41,918 nucleotides of DNA from Caldisphaera sp. (GCA_049971805.1 JBMFKU010000011.1:1-41918); one strand, 5' to 3'; positions 5,444 through 36,494 are shown, numbered from the stretch's first letter. A program made the numbers and translations. Notes: generated by a model not told the origin, from the sequence alone.

Positions 5444-6187
5444 ATGGCACTAAAAGGAGAAAATCTGGAAGTATCAATCGAAGAAAAGCCTATATTGCAT
5501 GATATTAGTTTGAAGATAGAAAAAGGGGAGGTTTTAATATTAATGGGACCTAATGGAAGCGGAAAGACAACACTTGCATATTCTTTGATGGGCCACCCAA
5601 AATATAAATTAAATAAAGGAAAAATTATAATGGATGAAAATGATATAACTGATCTACCTGCATATCAAAGGGCATTATTGGGCTTAGGATTAGGCTTCCA
5701 GAATCCAGTTGAGATATCAGGTCTAAGATTATCAATACTTTTAAATGCAATAAGCATGAAAAAGAAAACCGGTTCATTTGATATTTCACAAATTGATCCA
5801 AAGCTTTTAGCATGGGCTAGGAAGAAATCAGTAGAGTTAGGTCTTGGCCCATCATTTCTTGAGAGAGAAGTAAATGTAGGATTTAGTGGAGGGGAAAAGA
5901 AAAGATCAGAAATTTTGCAATTAATGGTAATGGATCCAAAATATATTATATTAGATGAGCCGGACAGCGGTTTAGATGTTGATGGAATTAAAATAATTGG
6001 AGATTCAATAGAAAACTTAAGGAACTCAGGGAAAGGTATATTGATAATAACACACCATGCAGAAATAACAAAATTTGTTGAGCCAAACAGGGTAATAATT
6101 ATATCGAAGGGAAGAATTGTTGATGAAGGAGGAGTTGAATTAATAAAGAAGATTGAAAGTCAAGGTTATAAAGATTATGGAGAGTGA
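5444..6187 (+). CDS. sufC: Fe-S assembly ABC ATPase SufC
   Basis: GPNGSGKT, FSGGEKKR and LDEPDSGLDVD. Confidence 0.95.
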   Translation: MALKGENLEVSIEEKPILHDISLKIEKGEVLILMGPNGSGKTTLAYSLMGHPKYKLNKGKIIMDENDITDLPAYQRALLGLGLGFQNPVEISGLRLSILLNAISMKKKTGSFDISQIDPKLLAWARKKSVELGLGPSFLEREVNVGFSGGEKKRSEILQLMVMDPKYIILDEPDSGLDVDGIKIIGDSIENLRNSGKGILIITHHAEITKFVEPNRVIIISKGRIVDEGGVELIKKIESQGYKDYGE

Positions 6188-7650
6188 TTGAATTGGATTC
6201 AGCTATTAAATTAACTAAAGAAAGCGAATTAAAAGATGTTTTAAGGCAAAGGAGAGTAGAAGACATAATGGGGAAGTCAATAACCTATCCAAAAGAAATA
6301 GAGCTAAAAGGAAAAATTTCAAGAGATTTAATAGAAGAAATATCGAAGTCAAAAAAAGAACCACAATGGATGTTAAACTTAAGGTTAAAGGCCTTAGAGC
6401 TTTTTGAAAAATTACCAATGCCTATGTGGATAGAAGGTGTTGAAAGCATAGACTTAGAGGAATTTTCTCAATATGTAAAGCCAAGTGTTGAAGTTGCTGA
6501 AAATTGGGACCAATTACCAGATTGGATGAGAGACATCTATTCAAAGATTGGATTGCCTGAAACCGAAGCAAAGGTTTTATCAGGATTGACTGCAGTTTTT
6601 GATAGCGAAAACATTATAAGCAGAGTTAAAGAGGAGCTAAAACAAAAAAATGTTGTGTTTATGTCAATGGACGAGGCTGTTCAAAAATACCCTGATTTAG
6701 TTAAGGAATACTTTGGAAAAGAGTTTCCAATGGCTGATCATAAATTTGCTGCATTACATTATGCGCTTTGGAGTGGAGGAGCATTTGTTTATGTTCCAAA
6801 AAACACAAAGATAGTAAATCCAATTGAAGCGTTTTTTATAATTGGTAGTGAAATGGAGGGCCAATTTGAGCACACATTGATTGTAGCAGATGATAACAGC
6901 TCTTTTGGAACTAGCTACGTGCACTTTATAGAAGGTTGCGCAGCGCCTGTGTTAAGAAACTTTAGCTTCCACGATGGTATGGTTGAAGTATATGCTGGAA
7001 AGAACTCACAAGTTTATTTTTCTACATTACAAAATTGGAGCAGGAGCATAATAAACTTTAATAATAAGAGGGCAGTAGCTATGGAAAATTCCCATGTTGA
7101 ATGGGTTGAAGGAAGCATTGGGAGTAAAATGACATATACTTATCCTAGCACAATATTAAGAGGTAGGGGGGCCTCAACAAGAAATATTTCAATAGGAATT
7201 TCCAATGGGCCATATGTAAAAGATGTTGGATCAAAGGCTATTCATGCAGCACCTGATACAAAAAGCATGATAATATCGAAGAGCATTAGTTCAAATGGAG
7301 GAATAGCAACATATAGAGGCCTGGTTAAGGTATTAAAGGGAGCAGAGAGAAGCTTTTCACATGTGCAATGTGATAGCTTAATATTAGACGATAAAAGTCA
7401 GGCCTATACATTGCCAAGAAATGAGGTTGATGAGCCAACTGCAATTGTTTCTCATGAAGCTTCTGTTGGTAAATTGGGTGAAGATCAGTTGTTTTACATG
7501 GGAAGCAGGGGGATTAGAGAGGGAGAGGCAAAAGCTTTAATAGTTAACGGCTTTATAAAAGACGTTTTAAAGAGCCTGCCTTTAGAGACTGTTAGCATAT
7601 TGACCAAGGTTATAGGTCTTGAGTTCAGCGAGTTAGGAAGTGTTGGGTGA
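6184..7650 (+). CDS. sufB: Fe-S cluster assembly protein SufB
   Basis: GQFEHTLI, EGCAAP, TLQNWS, QCDSL and HEASVG. Confidence 0.95.
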   Translation: MIELDSAIKLTKESELKDVLRQRRVEDIMGKSITYPKEIELKGKISRDLIEEISKSKKEPQWMLNLRLKALELFEKLPMPMWIEGVESIDLEEFSQYVKPSVEVAENWDQLPDWMRDIYSKIGLPETEAKVLSGLTAVFDSENIISRVKEELKQKNVVFMSMDEAVQKYPDLVKEYFGKEFPMADHKFAALHYALWSGGAFVYVPKNTKIVNPIEAFFIIGSEMEGQFEHTLIVADDNSSFGTSYVHFIEGCAAPVLRNFSFHDGMVEVYAGKNSQVYFSTLQNWSRSIINFNNKRAVAMENSHVEWVEGSIGSKMTYTYPSTILRGRGASTRNISIGISNGPYVKDVGSKAIHAAPDTKSMIISKSISSNGGIATYRGLVKVLKGAERSFSHVQCDSLILDDKSQAYTLPRNEVDEPTAIVSHEASVGKLGEDQLFYMGSRGIREGEAKALIVNGFIKDVLKSLPLETVSILTKVIGLEFSELGSVG

Positions 7651-8756
7651 TTATATTGAGTTTATCATTGATAAAGAAAAAAAGTGAAGATTTATATAAA
7701 AAAATTAAATGGCAGGAAATAAATGATTCACCAACGACTAAAAATTATACAGACTGGTCTCAATTTGAGAAATACATTAATAAAAATGATAATGAAATAA
7801 GATATGAAAAGCCTGAAGGAGATTTTGATATAATAGTTGGTTCTTGCGGAAATAAAGGAAGCAAAGATTTATATGAGAGCTTAATAAAATTTGAGGAAAG
7901 CAAGTTAACAGCATATCATTTTTATAAGGCCGAGGAAATATATAGCTTAAATTTAAAATCTGGAAAATACAGAATTGCATTTTGCTATCCAATTTCAAGC
8001 TCTTGGGTTTCTCAGCATTTAAAAATAAACATAGAAGAAGGATCAAACACATCTATTGTTATATATGAGAAAAGGGATTCTCCAGGAAGTACTGCTATCG
8101 AAATAAATGCATTAAAAGATTCAAATAATGAGATTTCAATAATATTAGATTCAAACGAAATTTATCCCACTGCTTATTTAATTAGAAAGGCATTGCATAA
8201 CAATGTAGAGATGAAATCATTTACTTTATCTAAATCAAGTATAATGAATAGGGTTGAAGAGAAGGTTGTTTTATTCGAAAACTCTAAATTAAAGCACAAC
8301 CTTTTGAATTTATCATATAAAGGTTTTAGATCTGATAATATAATCGATACAATACAAACTGGTTTAGGCTCTATAAGTGAGGTATCTGGTTTAGGCTTTG
8401 CTTTTAATTCTTCTCTATCATCTGTTAGAGGTACCGCAATAATTATGCCAGAGGCAAAAAAGAGCAGATCCTCTTTCAATATTGAGGCTCTATTATTTGG
8501 AGATAATGCAAAGGCATATACTATGCCTATGATGAAAATAGAAACAGGGGATGTAATATCTGCAAACCACAGATCAGCACAATATAGATTAAACGAGGAA
8601 ATACTGTTTTATTTAGAATCAAGGGGTATAGATGTAAATGAGATAACTTCTTTGCTAGTATATGAAAAAAGCCTAGGCATGACAGGTCATTTAGATGCAT
8701 ATAAGGAATTTGTTCAAAATATTATAATCAAGGAATTGAAGAAGATATATAAATAG
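7647..8756 (+). CDS. sufD: Fe-S cluster assembly protein SufD-like
   Basis: Beta-helix region and C-terminal ANH...LFYLESRGI; follows sufB. Confidence 0.85.
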   Translation: MIILSLSLIKKKSEDLYKKIKWQEINDSPTTKNYTDWSQFEKYINKNDNEIRYEKPEGDFDIIVGSCGNKGSKDLYESLIKFEESKLTAYHFYKAEEIYSLNLKSGKYRIAFCYPISSSWVSQHLKINIEEGSNTSIVIYEKRDSPGSTAIEINALKDSNNEISIILDSNEIYPTAYLIRKALHNNVEMKSFTLSKSSIMNRVEEKVVLFENSKLKHNLLNLSYKGFRSDNIIDTIQTGLGSISEVSGLGFAFNSSLSSVRGTAIIMPEAKKSRSSFNIEALLFGDNAKAYTMPMMKIETGDVISANHRSAQYRLNEEILFYLESRGIDVNEITSLLVYEKSLGMTGHLDAYKEFVQNIIIKELKKIYK

Positions 8757-17502: not shown

Positions 17503-18357
17503 ATGAAGTTAAATGAAGAAAGGATCAATGAAATAAGTGATGCTATAAAAGATTTCGGCATTTATTCAATTTTAAGATTGGAAGAAAATTACGATCCCCA
17601 GTTTAAATCAATACAAAATGTTTCACAAAGGATTGGAAAAAACTATTCATCAGCTTACTCCCTTCTTGTTTCTCTAGTAAGCTATAGGTTGGCAATGAAG
17701 GGTGAGGATTGGTGGGATTGCTTTTCAAAATACTTCTCAGAAAAAGATATTCCTAAGAACTATGATGAATTGATAAAAAATGTAATTGATTTTATTAATA
17801 GCTGCAGAGGATCTATTATAGGTAGGGAAAACAAGATAAAGAGGATAAAAAAGGTTTCATTGAATGCAAGGGATTTATTAATAAAAATATTAAACGAACC
17901 AAATTTAATATTAAACGAACCAAATAAAATCATGAAAGAAATTTCTAAGGCATTGAATTCTCAAGAATGGAGAAAGACGATATCTTTTTCAATAAAAATG
18001 GCATATTATGCAGTCAAAGATAGAAACGAATTAAAGCCTTTGCTGATTAAAATTCCATTACCAATAGATCTAAGGATATCATGTATAACATATACAAGCA
18101 ATTTAATTGATGCAGAAAGCTATAAAAAGATTTTATCAAGCCCAAAAATGGCCATATATGCATGGGATTGCATATCTGAAAAGAGCGGCGTACCTCAAAT
18201 CCATTTAGATAGCCTTTTATGGACAATTGGTTGGATTCCAAGAAATATGGGGATTAAAGAAGGGAGGAAAAAAGTTGTTGATATTTTAAAGAATATCTCT
18301 GATGAAGAGAAATCAGAAAAGATTGCTGAACAGTTCTTAATAAAGGAATGTAGATAG
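17503..18357 (+). CDS. Archaeal 8-oxoguanine DNA glycosylase/AP lyase (AGOG)
   Basis: EE.DPQF, SYRL..KGEDWW, KTISFSIKM, IPLPIDLRI and HLDSLLW. Confidence 0.9.
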   Translation: MKLNEERINEISDAIKDFGIYSILRLEENYDPQFKSIQNVSQRIGKNYSSAYSLLVSLVSYRLAMKGEDWWDCFSKYFSEKDIPKNYDELIKNVIDFINSCRGSIIGRENKIKRIKKVSLNARDLLIKILNEPNLILNEPNKIMKEISKALNSQEWRKTISFSIKMAYYAVKDRNELKPLLIKIPLPIDLRISCITYTSNLIDAESYKKILSSPKMAIYAWDCISEKSGVPQIHLDSLLWTIGWIPRNMGIKEGRKKVVDILKNISDEEKSEKIAEQFLIKECR

Positions 18358-18411
18358 GAACGAAAGGTTTTAAAATTCATTTTCTAATAATATGATTGAA
18401 AGGTGTAAAAA

Positions 18412-18798
18412 ATGGGAGTTTACCAATATAGGGATTTAAAAAAGCCAAGCGGAGGATTAAAGCATCTGGTTCATAAAAGGAAGAGAAGGTATGCAATGGG
18501 AGAGCTTTTTGTTGCAGCTGAGGTTTCAGATAAGGAAGAAAAGGTAATAAAGGATTGCATGGGCGGGAATAAAAAGATATCATTAAGGAAGGTAAATAAG
18601 GCAGTAATAACTGTAAATGGAAAATCAAAGGTTGTTAAGATTTTAAGCGTTATTTCAACCCCTGCAAATAGAGAATATGCTAAAAGAAACATAATAACAA
18701 AGGGGGCAATCATCGAGACGAGCGATGGTAAGGCAGTTGTTAAATCAAGACCGGGTCAGGATGGAATAGTAAATGCTGTTCTATTAAATAAACAGTAA
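18412..18798 (+). CDS. rps8e: 30S ribosomal protein S8e
   Basis: KPSGG, RNIITKGAIIET and SRPGQDGIVNAVL. Confidence 0.97.
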   Translation: MGVYQYRDLKKPSGGLKHLVHKRKRRYAMGELFVAAEVSDKEEKVIKDCMGGNKKISLRKVNKAVITVNGKSKVVKILSVISTPANREYAKRNIITKGAIIETSDGKAVVKSRPGQDGIVNAVLLNKQ

Positions 18799-18857
18799 TT
18801 AAATAAATTTGTATAAACTTTATATTTTAACTTGTAATTTAAAAGCTAGGTGGTAGA

Positions 18858-19775
18858 ATGTCTATTAATTATCCATGGCATTGGATTATAGAATGGAGCA
18901 CTCCTGGTACTGCACACATGCATGCAGTTAATAATGTGTATGCCTATGGCCAATCTAAATACCAAAGATGGGCAATAGTTGAATATGCAGATCTTGGAAA
19001 GGCATTAGTAATAGATGGAAAGGTGCAATCATCTTTATTGGATGAATTTGTATATCATGAATCGTTGGTTCAACCAGCAATGATATTAAATGGGAACCCC
19101 ATGAAAATCTTGATATTGGGTGGTGGTGAAGGAGCAACTTCTAGGGAAGTATTGAGATTTAAATCAACTGAAAAGGTTGTAATGGTAGATATAGATGACC
19201 AAATTGTTGAGGTTTGTAAAAAATATTTACCTGAATGGCATCAAAATTCATTTTATGATAAAAGGGTTGAATTGATTATAGATGATGCGGAGCACTATAT
19301 AGATAGCACAAATGAAAAGTTTGATGTAATAATTTCAGACCTTGTTGATCCAGAAGAGGCAGGACCTGCTGTAAGGCTATATACAAGGGAGTTCTATCAA
19401 AAGATTTTAAATAAATTGAATAAAAATGGTATATTTGTTACACAATCAACTAGCCCTGTATTAACTCCAACAGTTCATGCTGTTATATACAACACAATAA
19501 AAAGTGTTTTCAAATATGCATCTTCATACTATGTTTACATAAGAAGCTATGAAGGAATTTGGGGTTTTGTTATTGCATCAAATGAAGTAAACGTTGAAAA
19601 CATTAAAAGCCTAAACGTTGATGAATATGTAAAAATTAATGTAAAAGATAAAAATAGGTACTATGATAATGAATCTCATGCCCACATGTTTTATATACCA
19701 AGATACATAAGGAATATATTCGAAAAAGAAAAGAGGATATCAACAATTAAGGAACCAATTTATTTGCCAGCATAA
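18858..19775 (+). CDS. speE: Polyamine aminopropyltransferase (spermidine synthase family)
   Basis: DEFVYHESL, ILGGGEG and FDVIISD. Confidence 0.93.
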   Translation: MSINYPWHWIIEWSTPGTAHMHAVNNVYAYGQSKYQRWAIVEYADLGKALVIDGKVQSSLLDEFVYHESLVQPAMILNGNPMKILILGGGEGATSREVLRFKSTEKVVMVDIDDQIVEVCKKYLPEWHQNSFYDKRVELIIDDAEHYIDSTNEKFDVIISDLVDPEEAGPAVRLYTREFYQKILNKLNKNGIFVTQSTSPVLTPTVHAVIYNTIKSVFKYASSYYVYIRSYEGIWGFVIASNEVNVENIKSLNVDEYVKINVKDKNRYYDNESHAHMFYIPRYIRNIFEKEKRISTIKEPIYLPA

Positions 19776-19845
19776 TTTATTTTTGATTTTTTATCCTATT
19801 TTCACCCTCTCTCTATAAGATTTTTTTAATATAAGGGGTGAAAAC

Positions 19846-20085
19846 TTGGATATTATAACGTTTGTTCAGCAGGTAACGGAAAGAGTTACTGCATTGGCAT
19901 GGGCTCTATTTTTATTAACATGGAGCATTGGTTGGACTTTAAGAGGTGCCCCGTTACCTATTAATAGGCTTAAAAGAGTTGGTTCAGGGCTAATTGAGGA
20001 CTCAATATGGGCAGCTTTTTGGCTCGCAATAGGTTCTTCCCTGTTTAGCTTCATTGTTTATATCGTTAATTTAATAGCTGGGTAA
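19846..20085 (+). CDS. cedA1: Ced DNA-import small membrane protein / pilin CedA1
   Basis: 79 aa with two hydrophobic helices and the WSIGWTLRGAPLP...G..LIEDSIWAAFWLA motif. GGGGTGA RBS; directly upstream of cedA and cedB. Confidence 0.85.
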   Translation: MDIITFVQQVTERVTALAWALFLLTWSIGWTLRGAPLPINRLKRVGSGLIEDSIWAAFWLAIGSSLFSFIVYIVNLIAG

Positions 20086-20089
20086 TAGC

Positions 20090-21484
20090 ATGAATAGCAA
20101 TTTTTATTATATATTAGCAATAAATTTGTCATTGCTAACTTTTTATATAGGGGCATTGATATATGCACTTCCCATACCTGATAAATATTTTAAAAGATTT
20201 GGACCACAGCTAATAAAGGATTCGATACTTTCTTTTATAATAATATTATCAATATCGTTTATATATAGTTATTTAGATAATTTAGCATTATCTTTAGGAG
20301 GATCATGGCAGTACTTCAACCTATGGTTTGCAAACTCATTAAGCTTTGGGATATCGATTAAAGAAATTGTCTTAGTATTTTCATCTCTTTTTTCCCAAAT
20401 ACCTTTGGTGTCTCAAGTAAGATCATTGCTATCTCCTATAAATGATGCATTAAATGCTCAAATAATTTTTCTAGCGGCAATTTATGCGATCTATTATATG
20501 GTTAAGATAATGGGTAATTTTATCCTGTTAATTGGCCTTGTCCTATATTCAATACCTTTTAGGTTATCAAGAGATGCTGGTGCATGGTTTATTTCATTTA
20601 TTTTAGTGTTTAGCATTGGTCTCCAGGTAATGCCAGTTTTTTTGGTGAATTTTGCTCAATCGTCAAACAGCTATACTAATAATCAAGGTATTGATATGGG
20701 GTTGACATATGTTAATGCAAGAGTTTTAGATGAAAATAATGAACCAATACCCGGTTCTTTAATTTATGTTTATGTAAATCAAAACAATTCATTAAATCAA
20801 ATAGCATTATATAAAACAAATGACTTAGGAATAGTATATAGCCCTGACTATAACTATGATAGTTTAATCTCATTACCTAGCCAGGTCAGCTCATATATTT
20901 GGGGGGAAGAGGATGGTGTTGCATATAAGTTATTCCCTTATCCTCTAGATTCTTCAGACATAAGTTTTAATGGAACTATCAATCAGGTAACCCTCTATGC
21001 ACCAAATATTTTGTATGTAAATAAATATTATACAATTGTCTTCACTAATGGGAATTCATTTAAATTAAACCAGATTGGAAATAAGATTTTAATATATGGG
21101 AATTCATCAAATTATGTTGAAATAAGGTTTTTAAAAGGTTGTATAGCCAATCTATCTTATGTAAATGCTACCCTAACAAGATCAAGCTGGTCTTGGGAAA
21201 AATTAAACGGTCTGTCATACAGATTTGTTCCTTTAGAAAACGAAAATGCCTTAATAACATTTCAATTGAATTTATGCAAATCTGAGAATTTAAGCGCAAA
21301 ATATGATGACTATGCCATGAATTATTTATCATTAAACAACCTTTTATCACCTTCTTTAATAGAGAATATAATACTATATTATTTAACAGTTCCTTTAATC
21401 TATTTTTCATTGCTAGTATCTATAACATACGGTTTATCAAGGCTACTGGGAGGTAGGAGAGGTATAATACCAAGAGTGATATAA
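20090..21484 (+). CDS. cedA: Ced DNA-import membrane protein CedA (VirB6-like) with a large inserted extracellular domain
   Basis: G.LIYALPIP...G..LI.D, YSIPFRL.R..GA and C-terminal TM ending GLSRLLGG. Polar beta-rich insert at about aa 190-425. Confidence 0.82.
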   Translation: MNSNFYYILAINLSLLTFYIGALIYALPIPDKYFKRFGPQLIKDSILSFIIILSISFIYSYLDNLALSLGGSWQYFNLWFANSLSFGISIKEIVLVFSSLFSQIPLVSQVRSLLSPINDALNAQIIFLAAIYAIYYMVKIMGNFILLIGLVLYSIPFRLSRDAGAWFISFILVFSIGLQVMPVFLVNFAQSSNSYTNNQGIDMGLTYVNARVLDENNEPIPGSLIYVYVNQNNSLNQIALYKTNDLGIVYSPDYNYDSLISLPSQVSSYIWGEEDGVAYKLFPYPLDSSDISFNGTINQVTLYAPNILYVNKYYTIVFTNGNSFKLNQIGNKILIYGNSSNYVEIRFLKGCIANLSYVNATLTRSSWSWEKLNGLSYRFVPLENENALITFQLNLCKSENLSAKYDDYAMNYLSLNNLLSPSLIENIILYYLTVPLIYFSLLVSITYGLSRLLGGRRGIIPRVI

Positions 21485-22986
21485 TGATTTTCTCATTCAC
21501 ATTATTTGACATAATAATAGGGATTGTTGCCCTAATATCTCTTTTCTTAATTATAAAAAATATGAAGGTGAGGAATGAATTTTATATACCTATTAAATTT
21601 AGACCAAAAATCAGTGAAAATAAAAAGTTTTTCGAATTAAGTTTTAATGGTAAAAAATATTTGGGAATTACATATATTTCAGAAAACCTACCGAGAGGTG
21701 GTGATGATCTACCAAAAAGAATTATAAGGCTTGCAAAGTCAAGCAGGTTAAGCGTTTCATTTATTTCAAACATGTATAATGTAAACAAGAGCACACTTTT
21801 AAAGCTAATAGATGAGGAGATGAAGAAGGCTGATCTATCATTATCATCAACAGGTCAGATAAAATTTAGGGAAAGGCTAAAGTATTTGGAGGAATTATAC
21901 AAAGAGGTTGCAAGGATTGGGGTTCCATACATTGGAAACTTTGGTTTCATAGTTTGGATAGATCAAAACGACAGGGATTCTGAGCTGTCTGCAGAGGCAT
22001 TTAGGAGTTTAGTTGAGGCTGAGTCCCAGATAAAGACTAAAAGAATTAATGCAGATGAAATAGATGAAATGCTTTCAATAAATAACCCCATAAGTATTGT
22101 TAATGATGAGAATTCAATTTTAGTTACATCAGCAGACGATTTGGGAGAATATGAAGGTATAATAATTGGGGAAGAAGAAAATGATCCAGGCAAAATTGTT
22201 ATAATTTCATATCCTGAAAATCTTAAGCATCATATGGGTATCTTTGGTCCAACAGGTAGGGGTAAAACAGTTTTGCTTTCTGGTATAGCATCTCAGCTTT
22301 CGTTGCTTTCATCAGTTACCAAAAGTCCAGATTCAATTATTGTTTTAGACCCGAAGGGTGATATAAGCGATTTGCTAAAAAGGGTCTCAGATAACTATAT
22401 TGAGCCGGGATTAAACGATTGTATTCCATTTTCAAGGATAGAGGGTTTAGCAAATAAACTAATAGAGAGTAGCTATTTAACTGGAGATGGATTTAAAATA
22501 AAGATTTGTGAAGGACAAATAAATTATAAGGGTTTAACAGTTTATAACTTGTCAAGGATGCCTAACGAGGCAAGAAATGTTTATGGCTCCCTAATAATTT
22601 CATCTCTCGCCTTAGATGCAAGCGAAAACAAGTTAAATGGGATAAAGGTTTTGATTTTAGATGAGGCATGGAGATTCGTAAAAAATTCTCAAACACATCT
22701 AGAGTTCGCATTAAGAGAAGGCAGAAGCAAGGGGCTTTATTTAATATATGCAACACAATTGCCAAGTGATGTGGGTAAAGAAGTAATAGATAACACAGGT
22801 ACAAAGGCAGTATTTGGGGGGTTTACAAAATATTATGCTGAACTTGCTTCACAGCTAGGCATTTCAGATTCAGAGCAAGTAAAGACATTGCCAATAGGGT
22901 ATATTTTATTAAAAATTGAAAACAATAAAGAAAAAAGCGTAAAGGTTTTAGACTTCAGCAAATTGCTTTTAAATAGAAGAAGATAA
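21484..22986 (+). CDS. cedB: Membrane-anchored HerA/VirB4-like ATPase CedB
   Basis: N-terminal TM helix, Walker A GPTGRGKT, LDPKGD, Walker B LILDEAW, REGRSKG and ATQ. The start overlaps the cedA stop. Confidence 0.82.
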   Translation: MIFSFTLFDIIIGIVALISLFLIIKNMKVRNEFYIPIKFRPKISENKKFFELSFNGKKYLGITYISENLPRGGDDLPKRIIRLAKSSRLSVSFISNMYNVNKSTLLKLIDEEMKKADLSLSSTGQIKFRERLKYLEELYKEVARIGVPYIGNFGFIVWIDQNDRDSELSAEAFRSLVEAESQIKTKRINADEIDEMLSINNPISIVNDENSILVTSADDLGEYEGIIIGEEENDPGKIVIISYPENLKHHMGIFGPTGRGKTVLLSGIASQLSLLSSVTKSPDSIIVLDPKGDISDLLKRVSDNYIEPGLNDCIPFSRIEGLANKLIESSYLTGDGFKIKICEGQINYKGLTVYNLSRMPNEARNVYGSLIISSLALDASENKLNGIKVLILDEAWRFVKNSQTHLEFALREGRSKGLYLIYATQLPSDVGKEVIDNTGTKAVFGGFTKYYAELASQLGISDSEQVKTLPIGYILLKIENNKEKSVKVLDFSKLLLNRRR

Positions 22987-23034
22987 AAATAAGAGAGGAT
23001 AGATAAAGAGAGGGAAAAAAGAGAGTGATCAAGT

Positions 23035-23750
23035 ATGGGTAAGAGCTTAAGACAACAAAGAGCAGGCAGAGGTAGTCCAACATTTAGAAATCCTGGGCAC
23101 TTGCATGTTTCACCAGCAAAATATCCGGATATAATTGAAAGTACTGAAATTGGGAAAGTAAAGGAGCTAATCCACGACCCAGGAAGATATGTACCGTTAG
23201 CCCATGTTGTTACGGAGTCAGGAAGAGATTTTTACATACCTGCTGCTGAAGGTGTTTATGTGGGTAAAAAGATAGAGATAGGAAAAGATGCTTCTCCAGG
23301 CTTTGGAAATATACTGCCTCTATCGAAGATACCTGAAGGTACCTTAATTTTTAATGTTGAACTGAGACCGGGAGATGGAGGTAGGTTAGCAAGGCAGGCC
23401 GGTAGCTATGCATTGGTATTGGGGAAGAGCGGGGATAAAATAAGGATTAGATTGCCAAGTAAGGTAGAAAAGGATTTGGAAGGCAATTGCAGGGCAACAA
23501 TAGGAATTCCAGCAGGTTCTGGCAGGACTGAAAAGCCTATATTAAAAGCTGGTGTAACTTATTATAAATATAAAGCAAAGGCAACTAAGTTTCCAAAGGT
23601 AAGGGGGGTTGCTATGAATGTTGTATCTCATCCATTTGGTGGTGGATTCCATCAACATGAGGGTAGACCCACAACAATTGCAAGAAACACTCCTCCAGGA
23701 AGAAAGGTAGGGCATATAGCTGCGAGGAGAACAGGGAGAAGGAAAAAGTG
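23035..23750 (+). CDS. rpl2: 50S ribosomal protein L2 (uL2)
   Basis: MGKSLRQQRAGRG, IHDPGR, VRGVAMN..SHPFGGG and HIAARRTG. Confidence 0.97.
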
Positions 23751-23984
23751 ACGAATTTCTCTGCTTTACATTTAGATCAAAAATTGTTTTCTTGAAATCT
23801 ACAATTAATAGATATTTGAAATTTAATATGGGGGAATTTTTTGTGAACTAACATTATTATGTTGATTAATAATTTATAATGATAATCTTCCAAACCTTTC
23901 TAATTCATAAAGATAATTATTATTTGACATTTGAAAATAAATTTTTGGTATATTATAAAACACTAGATTCGATTTGTAACTTGA

Positions 23985-34990: not shown

Positions 34991-35631
34991 AGCTTTCTTT
35001 ATATAAATATAATTTAATGAGAACAGGATGAGAACAATCATTTAAAGTTCCACTATATAAAATTTTATCACATATCATCACATTCATAGTAGAAAGATTT
35101 CCAATATATTGGTTAGGTTAGAGCGCTATTTCAATATCAGGTCTGTCAATTATGTTTGGATTGATTTTCTTAATATATTATCATAAGAATGAAAAATTAA
35201 AGAAGCAAGATTTTATATATGGCTGATGGTTATCTTTAATATTTATCTTTAATATTTAATTGTAATATTAATTATTTTATATCCATGTGCTATGGAATTA
35301 ATAAAATACCATTTCTATATGACAATATGTCATTTTTGGATATTTTATTAATGTTCTATAATTGATGGTATTAAGAAGTTAAAAATATAATTATTAAAAG
35401 ATGGTAAAACAGATAAACCATTATTTATTTCTATTGATTTTGATTTGACATGTATCTATTTATAATTCTCAGAATTAACGTAATCATGAAGTCTATATTT
35501 ATAAATTATTTTTAAATATAAAAATATATTTGTTATTTTTAAATATACAATAATTATTAAAATATAATATATTTAATTTTCCATTGAGAAGCAAAATCCA
35601 TTTTAATCTTTCTATTTTTATTATTATCTGG

Positions 35632-35705
35632 GCCGTGGTAGCTCAGCCTGGTGGAGCGCTGCCCTGGTAAGGCAGAGGTCCCGGGTTCAAAGCCCGGCCA
35701 CGGCT
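35632..35705 (+). tRNA. tRNA-Thr(GGU)
   Basis: Acceptor stem GCCGTGG/CCACGGC; anticodon arm CTGCC-CTGGTAA-GGCAG; T-arm CCGGG-TTCAAAG-CCCGG. CCA is not encoded. Confidence 0.96.
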
Positions 35706-36402
35706 ATCTTATTTAATTATGTATGCCATGTATGACGTTACAAAATTTAATTTATGATATAAATTTCTACACCATCTAAACGATTTTTTTGTTTTCAATA
35801 GAATAAATTGCTTGTATAGATTAAACAAAAACAAATTATCGAATTATAGAAATTGTTTCTTTAATAAATTTTGGGTATAATGATTATGAGAAGATATTAA
35901 TAAAAAATAATAATGGGTGATAATATTTTTTAAACAATAGAATATTAATATATAATTTGCTAGTTATATTGGATATAATCTTCAAAAAATTAGTCAAATA
36001 AAATTTTATAGTTTGTATCAAAGTTTAATTATACTACTTTTATAAATTGTCGAAGCATCATTATCTTTATAATCGAATCAAAATAGTATGTTAATTCTAT
36101 TTTTCTGCATGACAACATTTTTACAAAAATAAATTCTCTATAAGAAAGTCAACTATGTTAACTAAATCATAAATGAAAAATTTAGAATTCTTATATATAT
36201 AAGATAAGTTAGCAAGAACTAATTTAAATCTTAAAATTGATATAAAATTATTTAGGATATATTCAATAAGCTCACTATAATTAATATATTAATATGATTA
36301 ATAATTTTAGATTCCCTTATAAAACTCTTATTAATTATTTTTGTGATTATTTATATAATAATTTTAATATATTATTAATTAATTTTTAACTTTTTATATA
36401 AG

Positions 36403-36494
36403 TGGGCCCGGGGGGATTTGAACCCCCGACCACAGGGACCCGATTCGGGTGCTTATGGCAAACCCCGCATCCTGCCAAACTGGACTACGGGCCC
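36403..36494 (-). tRNA. tRNA-Pro(CGG) with 18-nt intron at position 32/33 (intron 36444-36461)
   Basis: Acceptor stem GGGCCCG/CGGGCCC-A. Removing TTGCCATAAGCACCCGAA gives CGGGG-TTCGGGT-CCCTG. A bulge-helix-bulge motif forms at the junctions. Confidence 0.92.

Follow-up and report, generated by a model that had tools for sequence, protein, structure and literature searches.

What kind of machine is encoded by a small, tightly packed gene cluster that sits among the housekeeping genes of a Caldisphaera species? The cluster lies at positions 19846-22986 of a 41,918-nucleotide stretch of DNA (GCA_049971805.1 JBMFKU010000011.1:1-41918), referred to here as the window. A preliminary description, made from the sequence alone, had proposed a compact three-gene Ced system, a domesticated relative of conjugation machines that imports chromosomal DNA, consisting of a pilin, a membrane channel and an ATPase. 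The analysis presented here leads to much the same answer. Very probably, the locus is a Ced cluster that is intact, chromosomal and of the kind known from Acidilobus and Aeropyrum, whose cedA1-cedA-cedB genes are its orthologues. Pilus formation, the direction of transfer, the DNA substrate and induction by damage are attributed to it by analogy with relatives, and are worded as such below.

Assignment of the three genes

The listing of open reading frames (ORFs) bore out the described layout to the base. Three ORFs follow each other on the plus strand between speE and rpl2: 19846-20085 (79 amino acids, aa), 20090-21484 (464 aa) and 21484-22986 (500 aa). A gap of 4 bp (20086-20089) separates the first two, and the stop of the second overlaps the start of the third by one base, 21484 (TAATG). 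The first gene starts with TTG, which lines up with the ATG, GTG or TTG starts of related loci, and the other two start with ATG.

19846-20085 (+): cedA1, VirB2-like pilin of the Ced pilus, 79 aa (NF041797, PDB 8dfu_B)
20090-21484 (+): cedA, long-form VirB6-like membrane platform or channel, 464 aa (NF041796, AlphaFold2 model)
21484-22986 (+): cedB-type ATPase with a transmembrane (TM) anchor, an N-terminal domain and a HerA/VirB4-class motor, 500 aa (Pfam, NCBIfam, folds)

The first protein scores 121.8 bits against NF041797 (Ced_CedA1), over the curated cut-off of 100, along model positions 1-74 of 75, and is the only match over that cut-off in its genome (1.52 Mb in 66 contigs, 96.6% complete). 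It aligns with the pilin of the Aeropyrum pernix conjugation pilus (8dfu_B) at an E-value of 2.5e-29, residues 2-77 lying on residues 3-78, and is about 70% like it. This 8DFU pilin is its sole sequence match in the PDB at E-values up to 1, in a collection that includes TedC (8DFT). A simple hydropathy scan flags just the second helix (60-78), and the aligned A. pernix pilin has two. The small two-helix membrane protein of the preliminary description is thus CedA1, on the strength of the cut-off passed and of 76 residues aligned with 8DFU; Ced pilins are described as VirB2-like (PMC9905601). The local copy of Pfam gave no match for either CedA1 or CedA.

The second protein matches NF041796 (Ced_CedA) at an E-value of 5.6e-32 (111.3 bits), with residues 3-192 on model positions 4-195 and a C-terminal piece on 206-254, and a search of the genome with this model returned no other CedA homologue. 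It is polytopic, with hydrophobic segments between residues 8 and 186 and another at 427-445. Its AlphaFold2 model, built from an 18-row alignment (mean predicted local distance difference test, pLDDT, 84), is seven-helix-like, with helices across residues 3-189. In a wide VIA search of 48,161 representative PDB chains, the helical part aligned with TrwI/VirB6 of the R388 type IV secretion system (T4SS) at rank 2 (7o3v_F; Z 8.7, 208 residues aligned, root-mean-square deviation (rmsd) 8.0). As Z-scores below about 13 can be generic for helical bundles, this match is supportive rather than decisive, and it joins the profile match and the lack of a second homologue in identifying the protein as CedA.

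The third protein is the TM-anchored HerA/VirB4 ATPase that had been described, with a single N-terminal helix and a P-loop domain.

21499-21570 (+): CedB residues 6-29, membrane anchor helix (hydropathy 2.78 over 6-24; model helix 7-29)
22147-22971 (+): CedB residues 222-496, FtsK/HerA-superfamily motor (VIA-align)
22246-22269 (+): Walker A motif of the CedB motor, GPTGRGKT
22660-22665 (+): Walker B motif of the CedB motor, DE

Both Walker motifs (G255-K261; D393 and E394) are invariant in 17 sequences, and two Pfam families, PF01935 (33.1 bits) and PF12846 (29.3 bits), are matched over their cut-offs. With VIA-align, the motor is closest to HerA (4d2i_B; Z 25.9, rmsd 3.0, 253 aligned), followed by VirB4 (4ag5_B, 22.7), TrwB (1e9s_H, 22.5) and FtsK (2iut_A, 20.8). 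Foldseek places R388 TrwK/VirB4 (8rtd_O) first, at 4e-16, and S. solfataricus HerA (4d2i_A) third, at 8.5e-16.

Naming this ATPase within its superfamily required more than profile scores. Its best NCBIfam names are CedB (NF041017, 53.1 bits) and CedD (49.9 bits; cut-off 600), with further weak matches to TraD, TrbE and VirB4. Among 81 genomes of the order, the CedB cut-off is exceeded only in the seven genomes of family f13, and intermediate families reach 180-323 bits. Family f13 is taken to be the Sulfolobus family because Sulfolobus acidocaldarius is the only control genome over that cut-off. In two genomes, G012 and G029, the best CedB-model gene (180 and 217 bits, along nearly the full model) lies directly 3' of cedA1 and a long cedA, and the same genes are also the best match to a profile of the window-type ATPase. 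In the five genomes checked, no CedB-like gene was accompanied by a second ATPase gene of the window type.

A tree of 36 ATPases was built from the window protein, 16 of its 62 listed homologues, five of the seven f13 CedB proteins, two intermediate loci and two syntenic genes; the remaining rows were four f13 CedD proteins, the CedD-like gene on contig C20 of the same genome, one CedD-like gene of genome G003, three HerA proteins and one other G029 gene. It splits the 17 window-type, syntenic CedB-like, intermediate and f13 CedB sequences from CedD and HerA with an SH-aLRT support of 97. The third ORF is accepted as a fast-diverged CedB on account of this tree, of the CedB position in G012 and G029, and of Table S1 of Recalde et al. 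2025 (PMC11823120), where the corresponding genes ASAC_1272 and APE_0219 are named CedB. Identity of the ATPase falls from 65-68% within Caldisphaera to about 48% in Acidilobus, then through Desulfurococcales to about 30% in Aeropyrum. In eight genomes of a sister family, f7, the CedB-model match is spread over two adjoining ORFs, an N-terminal one of about 190-207 aa and an ATPase of about 385-405 aa (for example, G078:C5:20636-22244 and G069:C7:16600-18208).

Several observations weigh against the assignment. CedA reaches 111 bits where NF041796 has a curated cut-off of 330, although this equivalog model is tuned to Sulfolobales and its 259 positions lack the outer domain described below. 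The ATPase has 53 bits on NF041017 against a cut-off of 700, and within its own genome the CedB model favours the CedD-like gene on C20 (73 bits) over the window ATPase (31 + 23). The ATPase tree is a quick search with SH-aLRT support only, and the window-type clade stands on a long stem of 1.78 changes per column. Import and damage induction are known from the genetics of Sulfolobales, not of this organism. Lastly, the damage-responsive motif ANTTTC, found before cedA1 here, is absent from 22 of 37 cedA1 upstream regions (the window and 36 related loci; three loci without cedA1 and two with too little sequence were excluded), among them that of the Aeropyrum-like locus L049, and 18.5% of 85-nt stretches of this AT-rich genome would contain it by chance. 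On the other side stand a CedA1 over its cut-off, a CedA with no second homologue and an ATPase that groups with CedB in the quick tree.

A conserved cluster, its partners and its relatives

Conservation was followed in 41 related loci drawn from genome contigs. The order cedA1-cedA-ATPase, all on one strand, is found in all 36 loci whose sequence extends 1.9 kb or more upstream of the ATPase, and in two more with shorter upstream sequence; the remaining three of the 41 are cut. Where 0.9 kb or more of downstream sequence is available (40 loci), rpl2 is the gene directly 3' of the ATPase in 26; speE lies just 5' of the trio in nine of the 41. A tblastn search with the ATPase (E 1e-3) found no match in 72,556 plasmid or 50,697 phage records. 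GC content at 19-23 kb is 0.30-0.34, within the window range of 0.23-0.39, and the 33 window ORFs gave no Pfam match, at the thresholds used, to integrase, transposase or relaxase families; the claim that the locus has no GC anomaly, relaxase or integrase was correct. The Pfam matches of these ORFs describe housekeeping genes (Suf, Kdp, fumarase, thiamine, GlmS and others) and an Hjc resolvase. The ced cluster is chromosomal, among core genes and outside mobile elements. In one related genome, contig G005:C2 carries two apparently identical, inverted copies of cedA1-cedA-ATPase (5776-8466 and 63407-66097).

Some parts known from other Ced systems are found elsewhere in the genome. An ORF of 536 aa on C20 matches the CedD model NF053655 with 250 bits (cut-off 600), residues 33-512 aligning with positions 25-526 of 527, and groups with CedD in the quick tree (SH-aLRT 88). 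CedD is reported to be essential for import in Sulfolobales (PMC11868833). The 'compact three-gene machine' of the preliminary description is consequently right in that the trio is the Ced cluster and incomplete in that a CedD-like ATPase is encoded apart from it. A prediction of a complex between the N-terminal domains of CedB (40-215) and the CedD-like protein (60-205) scored 0.01 and 0.00 (mark 0.32; run without controls), which is evidence neither way. HerA itself is encoded on C24, inside an operon with Mre11-like, Rad50 and NurA genes, and further weak HerA-class matches lie on C32 and C8.

Other parts were not found. At E 0.01, the CedA2 model NF041798 finds nothing in this 96.6%-complete genome, and there is no space for a cedA2 gene inside the cluster, in keeping with the single small subunit described. 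A search of the same genome gave no second CedA and no CedE. The genome-wide search for Ups, with a set of models that did not comprise UpsE, gave at best 30.1 bits for UpsA (cut-off 130) and 44.8 for UpsF (cut-off 400), which extends the reported lack of ups genes from the window to the genome. Two generic type-IV-pilus-like loci are present on C30 and C2, and their ATPases score best as FlaI or BasE.

In the preliminary description, these absences had made the locus a variant, a status that it does not keep. The same set, cedA1-cedA-cedB with no CedA2 or Ups entries, is given for Acidilobus saccharovorans and both Aeropyrum species in Table S1 of Recalde et al. 2025 (PMC11823120). The CedA1, CedA and CedB entries of that table are ASAC_1270/1271/1272 and APE_0220a/0220/0219, with CedD elsewhere and CedA2 marked '-' (PMC11823120). 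Likewise, CedA2 is described as not conserved and A. pernix as being without Ups in Beltran et al. 2023 (PMC9905601). The state without cedA2 and without Ups is the norm in this lineage. The Caldisphaera locus shares with these systems the gene order, the lack of cedA2, the unlinked cedD, the lack of Ups and a CedA1 that matches 8DFU, and the Aeropyrum-like locus L049 has a long CedA of 465 aa and rpl2 downstream. It is set apart from Acidilobus by genus and by an ATPase about 48% identical, and from Aeropyrum by an ATPase about 30% identical and by the upstream AGOG-S8e-speE genes, seen only in Caldisphaera- and Acidilobus-type loci.

Differences from the Ced systems of Sulfolobales are more numerous. 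These comprise Saci_0569/0568/0567/0748/0667 in S. acidocaldarius, and CedA1, CedA, CedA2, CedB, CedD and CedE in Saccharolobus islandicus. Shared features are CedA1, a VirB6-like CedA, a TM-anchored CedB, a CedD paralogue, chromosomal location and an ANTTTC-type element before cedA1. In contrast, the window cedB is in an operon with cedA, as judged by the 1-bp overlap, whereas the locus number of Sulfolobales cedB is far from that of cedA (Table S1, PMC11823120); matches to CedA2 and CedE, and Ups orthologs over the cut-offs, are lacking here; the window CedA has an extra outer domain of about 195 aa, the f13 forms being 260-277 aa long; and the window CedB, strongly diverged, falls short of theirs by about 90-115 aa.

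The Ted system of Thermoproteales (TedC, TedA, TedB) follows the same chromosomally domesticated VirB2/VirB6/VirB4 logic (PMC9905601). Nevertheless, the parts of Ced and Ted are reported to lack recognisable sequence similarity (PMC9905601), and the window pilin matches the A. pernix chain rather than TedC, the signal peptide of which is cleaved. The best family names of all three window proteins are those of Ced.

Taken together, the Caldisphaera-like genome joins the lineages that carry a domesticated, conjugation-like Ced machine, and the Aeropyrum-type layout (a cedA1-cedA-cedB operon without cedA2 or Ups, with cedD elsewhere) is the common one outside the Sulfolobus family. There is a practical consequence for annotation: the curated NCBI models for CedA and CedB miss these orthologues by wide margins. 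Publicly, CedA orthologues are named 'hypothetical protein', and CedB orthologues 'putative ATPase', 'DUF87 domain-containing protein', 'type IV secretory system conjugative DNA transfer family protein' or 'helicase HerA domain-containing protein'.

By analogy with relatives, CedA1 would enter the membrane without signal-peptide cleavage and polymerise into a thin, VirB2-like, lipid-containing pilus. CedA, with seven helices, a VirB6-like fold and a first hairpin homologous to CedA1, could underlie the pilus as its membrane platform or channel, with the double beta-sandwich probably outside the membrane. CedB, as a membrane-anchored and presumably hexameric ATPase of the VirB4/HerA class, may drive assembly, DNA passage or both, and the CedD-like ATPase encoded on C20 would complete the motor. 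Imported DNA might then pass to homologous recombination, for which the genome holds the Mre11-Rad50-NurA-HerA operon on C24 and the Hjc gene in the window.

The same apparatus might instead work mainly as an exporter, or as a two-way, conjugation-like bridge for chromosomal DNA. Its parts are homologous to VirB2, VirB6 and VirB4 of exporting T4SSs, as is apparent from the TrwK-like fold of the ATPase (E 4e-16) and the TrwI-like fold of CedA (Z 8.7). CedA1, CedE and Ups also act in DNA export in Sa. islandicus (PMC11868833), and the tests of transfer direction found in the literature concern Sulfolobales only. However, CedA and CedB are importers according to genetic work in S. acidocaldarius (cited in PMC9905601 and PMC11823120), Ced transfer in Sulfolobales is reported as import, and no gene for a relaxase, a VirD4-type coupling protein or VirB3, VirB5, VirB8, VirB9, VirB10 or VirB11 was found among the 33 window ORFs, which lack a plasmid context. 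This alternative is improbable, though the foremost of those weighed here.

Less probable still is a CedA1 pilus that serves adhesion or a non-DNA substrate and has no role in DNA transfer in this lineage. With no Ups ortholog found, the Ced pilus could have assumed cell contact, and the surface-type double beta-sandwich of CedA resembles domains of adhesive pilins and ushers. Against this, a CedD-like translocase and the FtsK/HerA DNA-pump fold are kept, as are strict orthology and synteny with DNA-exchange systems, which makes the idea very unlikely.

That the ATPase stems from a mobile conjugative element or a HerA-based anti-phage system, with unrelated membrane neighbours, has next to no credibility: beyond its weak TraD, TrbE and VirB4 matches, PADLOC gives it only generic ATPase matches (mad8, at most 65.7 bits; HerA, 49 bits), and, unlike Sir2-HerA or DUF4297-HerA systems, it neighbours CedA1 (over its cut-off), CedA and rpl2 without any PADLOC match among these neighbours, in a trio syntenic in 38 loci beside core genes such as rpl2, with ordinary GC, no plasmid or phage match, and nothing among the 33 scanned ORFs that would be an integrase, a relaxase or a Sir2 or nuclease partner. 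The Ced assignment therefore stands, and two features of the cluster deserve closer attention.

The outer domain of CedA

The membrane part of CedA is interrupted, before the last TM helix, by a large all-strand region.

20090-20317 (+): CedA residues 1-76, N-terminal helical hairpin homologous to CedA1 (8dfu_B; Z 7.5, 75 aligned, 25% identity)
20699-21280 (+): CedA residues 204-397, pair of consecutive beta-sandwiches preceding the final TM helix (all-strand in the AlphaFold2 model)
21350-21445 (+): CedA residues 421-452, final TM helix; the basic tail RLLGGRRGIIPRVI comes after it (hydropathy, model, alignment)

The CedA1 model NF041797 also matches CedA residues 9-52, and the kinship of the CedA hairpin with CedA1 was noted earlier in the Discussion of PMC9905601. 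In the tail, G454 is invariant and R451 and G455 are nearly so. A Foldseek search of the whole CedA model against the PDB retrieved only tandem-immunoglobulin Fab chains (TM-score 0.08-0.20) and was set aside as uninformative. CedA homologues bear the precomputed label PF27251.1, a family outside the local copy of Pfam.

The first beta domain (206-306) aligns with 3e8v_A (Z 9.6, rmsd 2.2, 81 residues), and with usher C-terminal, CnaB-pilin and transthyretin-like domains at Z 6.4-7.5; the second (311-397) resembles beta-sandwich domains of glycosidases (Z 6.5-6.8). Six of the seven N-x-S/T sequons of CedA fall within residues 232-400. The double beta-sandwich is probably extracellular in the predicted topology, since the positive-inside rule, applied to the basic loop 27-44, to R158 and R161 and to the basic C-terminal tail, would turn the beta domains outward.

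This long form of CedA occurs in all sampled families but that of Sulfolobus. A match to CedA was obtained in 68 of the 81 genomes surveyed. In all seven f13 genomes, it lies in frames of 260-277 aa and is confined to profile positions 5 to about 200. In the other 61, the window's own genome included, 60 have frames of 450-587 aa, and one frame (341 aa) is cut by a contig end. The middle part of the long CedA aligns only partly in 12 genomes (families f2 and f9). Searched alone against 1.84 billion representative sequences, the outer domain retrieved 18 proteins at E-values up to 0.001: 13 are CedA-sized (455-465 aa), one is a 358-aa partial entry of the window protein itself (100% identity), and four are large repetitive proteins, probably driven by composition. 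Across 18 sequences, mean pairwise identity is 19-24% in the outer domain and 36-44% in the membrane part, corresponding to roughly twofold faster evolution. A literature search yielded no description of the domain, nor do the passages drawn on from PMC9905601 (its supplementary figures outside this scope) and PMC11823120 contain one.

We offer, as a tentative idea that is rather more likely to be wrong than right, that the outer domain of long-form CedA acts outside the cell as a collar or contact module for a true Ced pilus, which would permit cells to join and take up DNA without Ups. It would then have been lost in the Sulfolobus family, in which Ups pili provide the contact and no extended Ced pili have been observed; in the same idea, the ANTTTC element described next would imply that damage control of Ced by an Orc1-2-type protein may predate Sulfolobales. 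In either case, the outer domain and the promoter element are handles on how contact is made in archaea that lack Ups, and on the timing of DNA exchange.

A candidate damage-response element and the surroundings of the cluster

Three features precede cedA1, the last two read directly from the sequence.

19798-19803 (+): ATTTTC, matching the Sulfolobales element 5'-ANTTTC-3', 48 nt before the cedA1 start (putative function)
19814-19841 (+): AT-rich TATA-like stretch, including the ribosome-binding-like site, with TATAA at 19814-19818 and TTTAATATAA at 19825-19834
19835-19841 (+): ribosome-binding-like site GGGGTGA, 5 nt before the cedA1 TTG

In Sa. islandicus, Orc1-2 binds ANTTTC as the damage-responsive element, which most damage-response genes carry at -23 to -55 (PMC6061795). 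Of the 37 cedA1 upstream regions, 15 have it on the coding strand between -100 and -16, and one has it on the other strand. In 300 dinucleotide shuffles, the mean was 5.9 regions and the maximum 13. All 15 regions also fit the longer form NANTTTCR (shuffle mean 1.9, maximum 6), and they belong to a few related groups, so that they do not count as independent. A strict form, TA.TTTC[AG], has a genome background of 2.9% per 85 nt. The motif before cedA1 is a lead towards a damage-control element.

Two Orc1/Cdc6 paralogues are encoded in the genome (432.8 vs 215.6 bits). The diverged one (G000:C13:15108-16247, minus strand, G000 being the window's own genome) has TACTTTCA about 90 nt before its start, which recalls the self-induced Orc1-2 of Sulfolobales. 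The strict form also precedes the first gene of the pilus-like operon on C2 (at -58) and a gene of the C30 pilus locus. A damage regulon joining Ced with a type-IV-pilus locus was considered and rejected: of 20 loci of the family, only three have ANTTTC before the C2-type operon and one, in the window's own genome, has the strict form. A genome-wide motif scan for such a regulon, based on crude ORF calls, proved too noisy at backgrounds of 18.5% for ANTTTC and 2.9% for the strict form. The C2-type operon encodes a 145-aa protein, an ATPase and an UpsF-like membrane protein. Before it, at G000:C2:11400-11465 and in loci L105-L109, lies a palindrome-like CATTTC-N6/7-GAAATG common to close relatives, possibly an operator separate from ANTTTC. 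A scan of the window for sigma-70 promoters and terminators gave no enrichment, with models that do not apply to archaea.

The flanks of the ced genes are well defined. On the plus strand, an AGOG-type 8-oxoguanine glycosylase gene, rps8e and speE occupy 17503-19775, directly followed by the ced genes; speE itself lies at 18858-19775 (NF002010, 272.5 bits; cut-off 260). This AGOG-rps8e-speE order is shared by Caldisphaera- and Acidilobus-type loci. On the other side, the essential ribosomal gene rpl2 lies at 23035-23751 (+) (NF007180, 346.6 bits; cut-off 265), as a single gene separated from cedB by a 48-bp spacer, and its position is kept in loci among L019-L057. Records labelled Caldisphaera, Acidilobus, Aeropyrum, Thermodiscus and Pyrodictiaceae show the same adjacency of cedB and rpl2. 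The public sequencing runs that match positions 19700-23800 of the window are hot-spring metagenome DNA, with no RNA run among them.

Further from the cluster, the Hjc Holliday-junction resolvase gene lies at 410-850 on the minus strand (PF01870, E 3.4e-24), 19 kb away. Two tRNA genes, at 35632-35705 (+) and 36403-36494 (-), fall in or beside the most AT-rich kilobase of the window (35001-36000, GC 0.227). The second of these is 92 nt long and may contain an intron.

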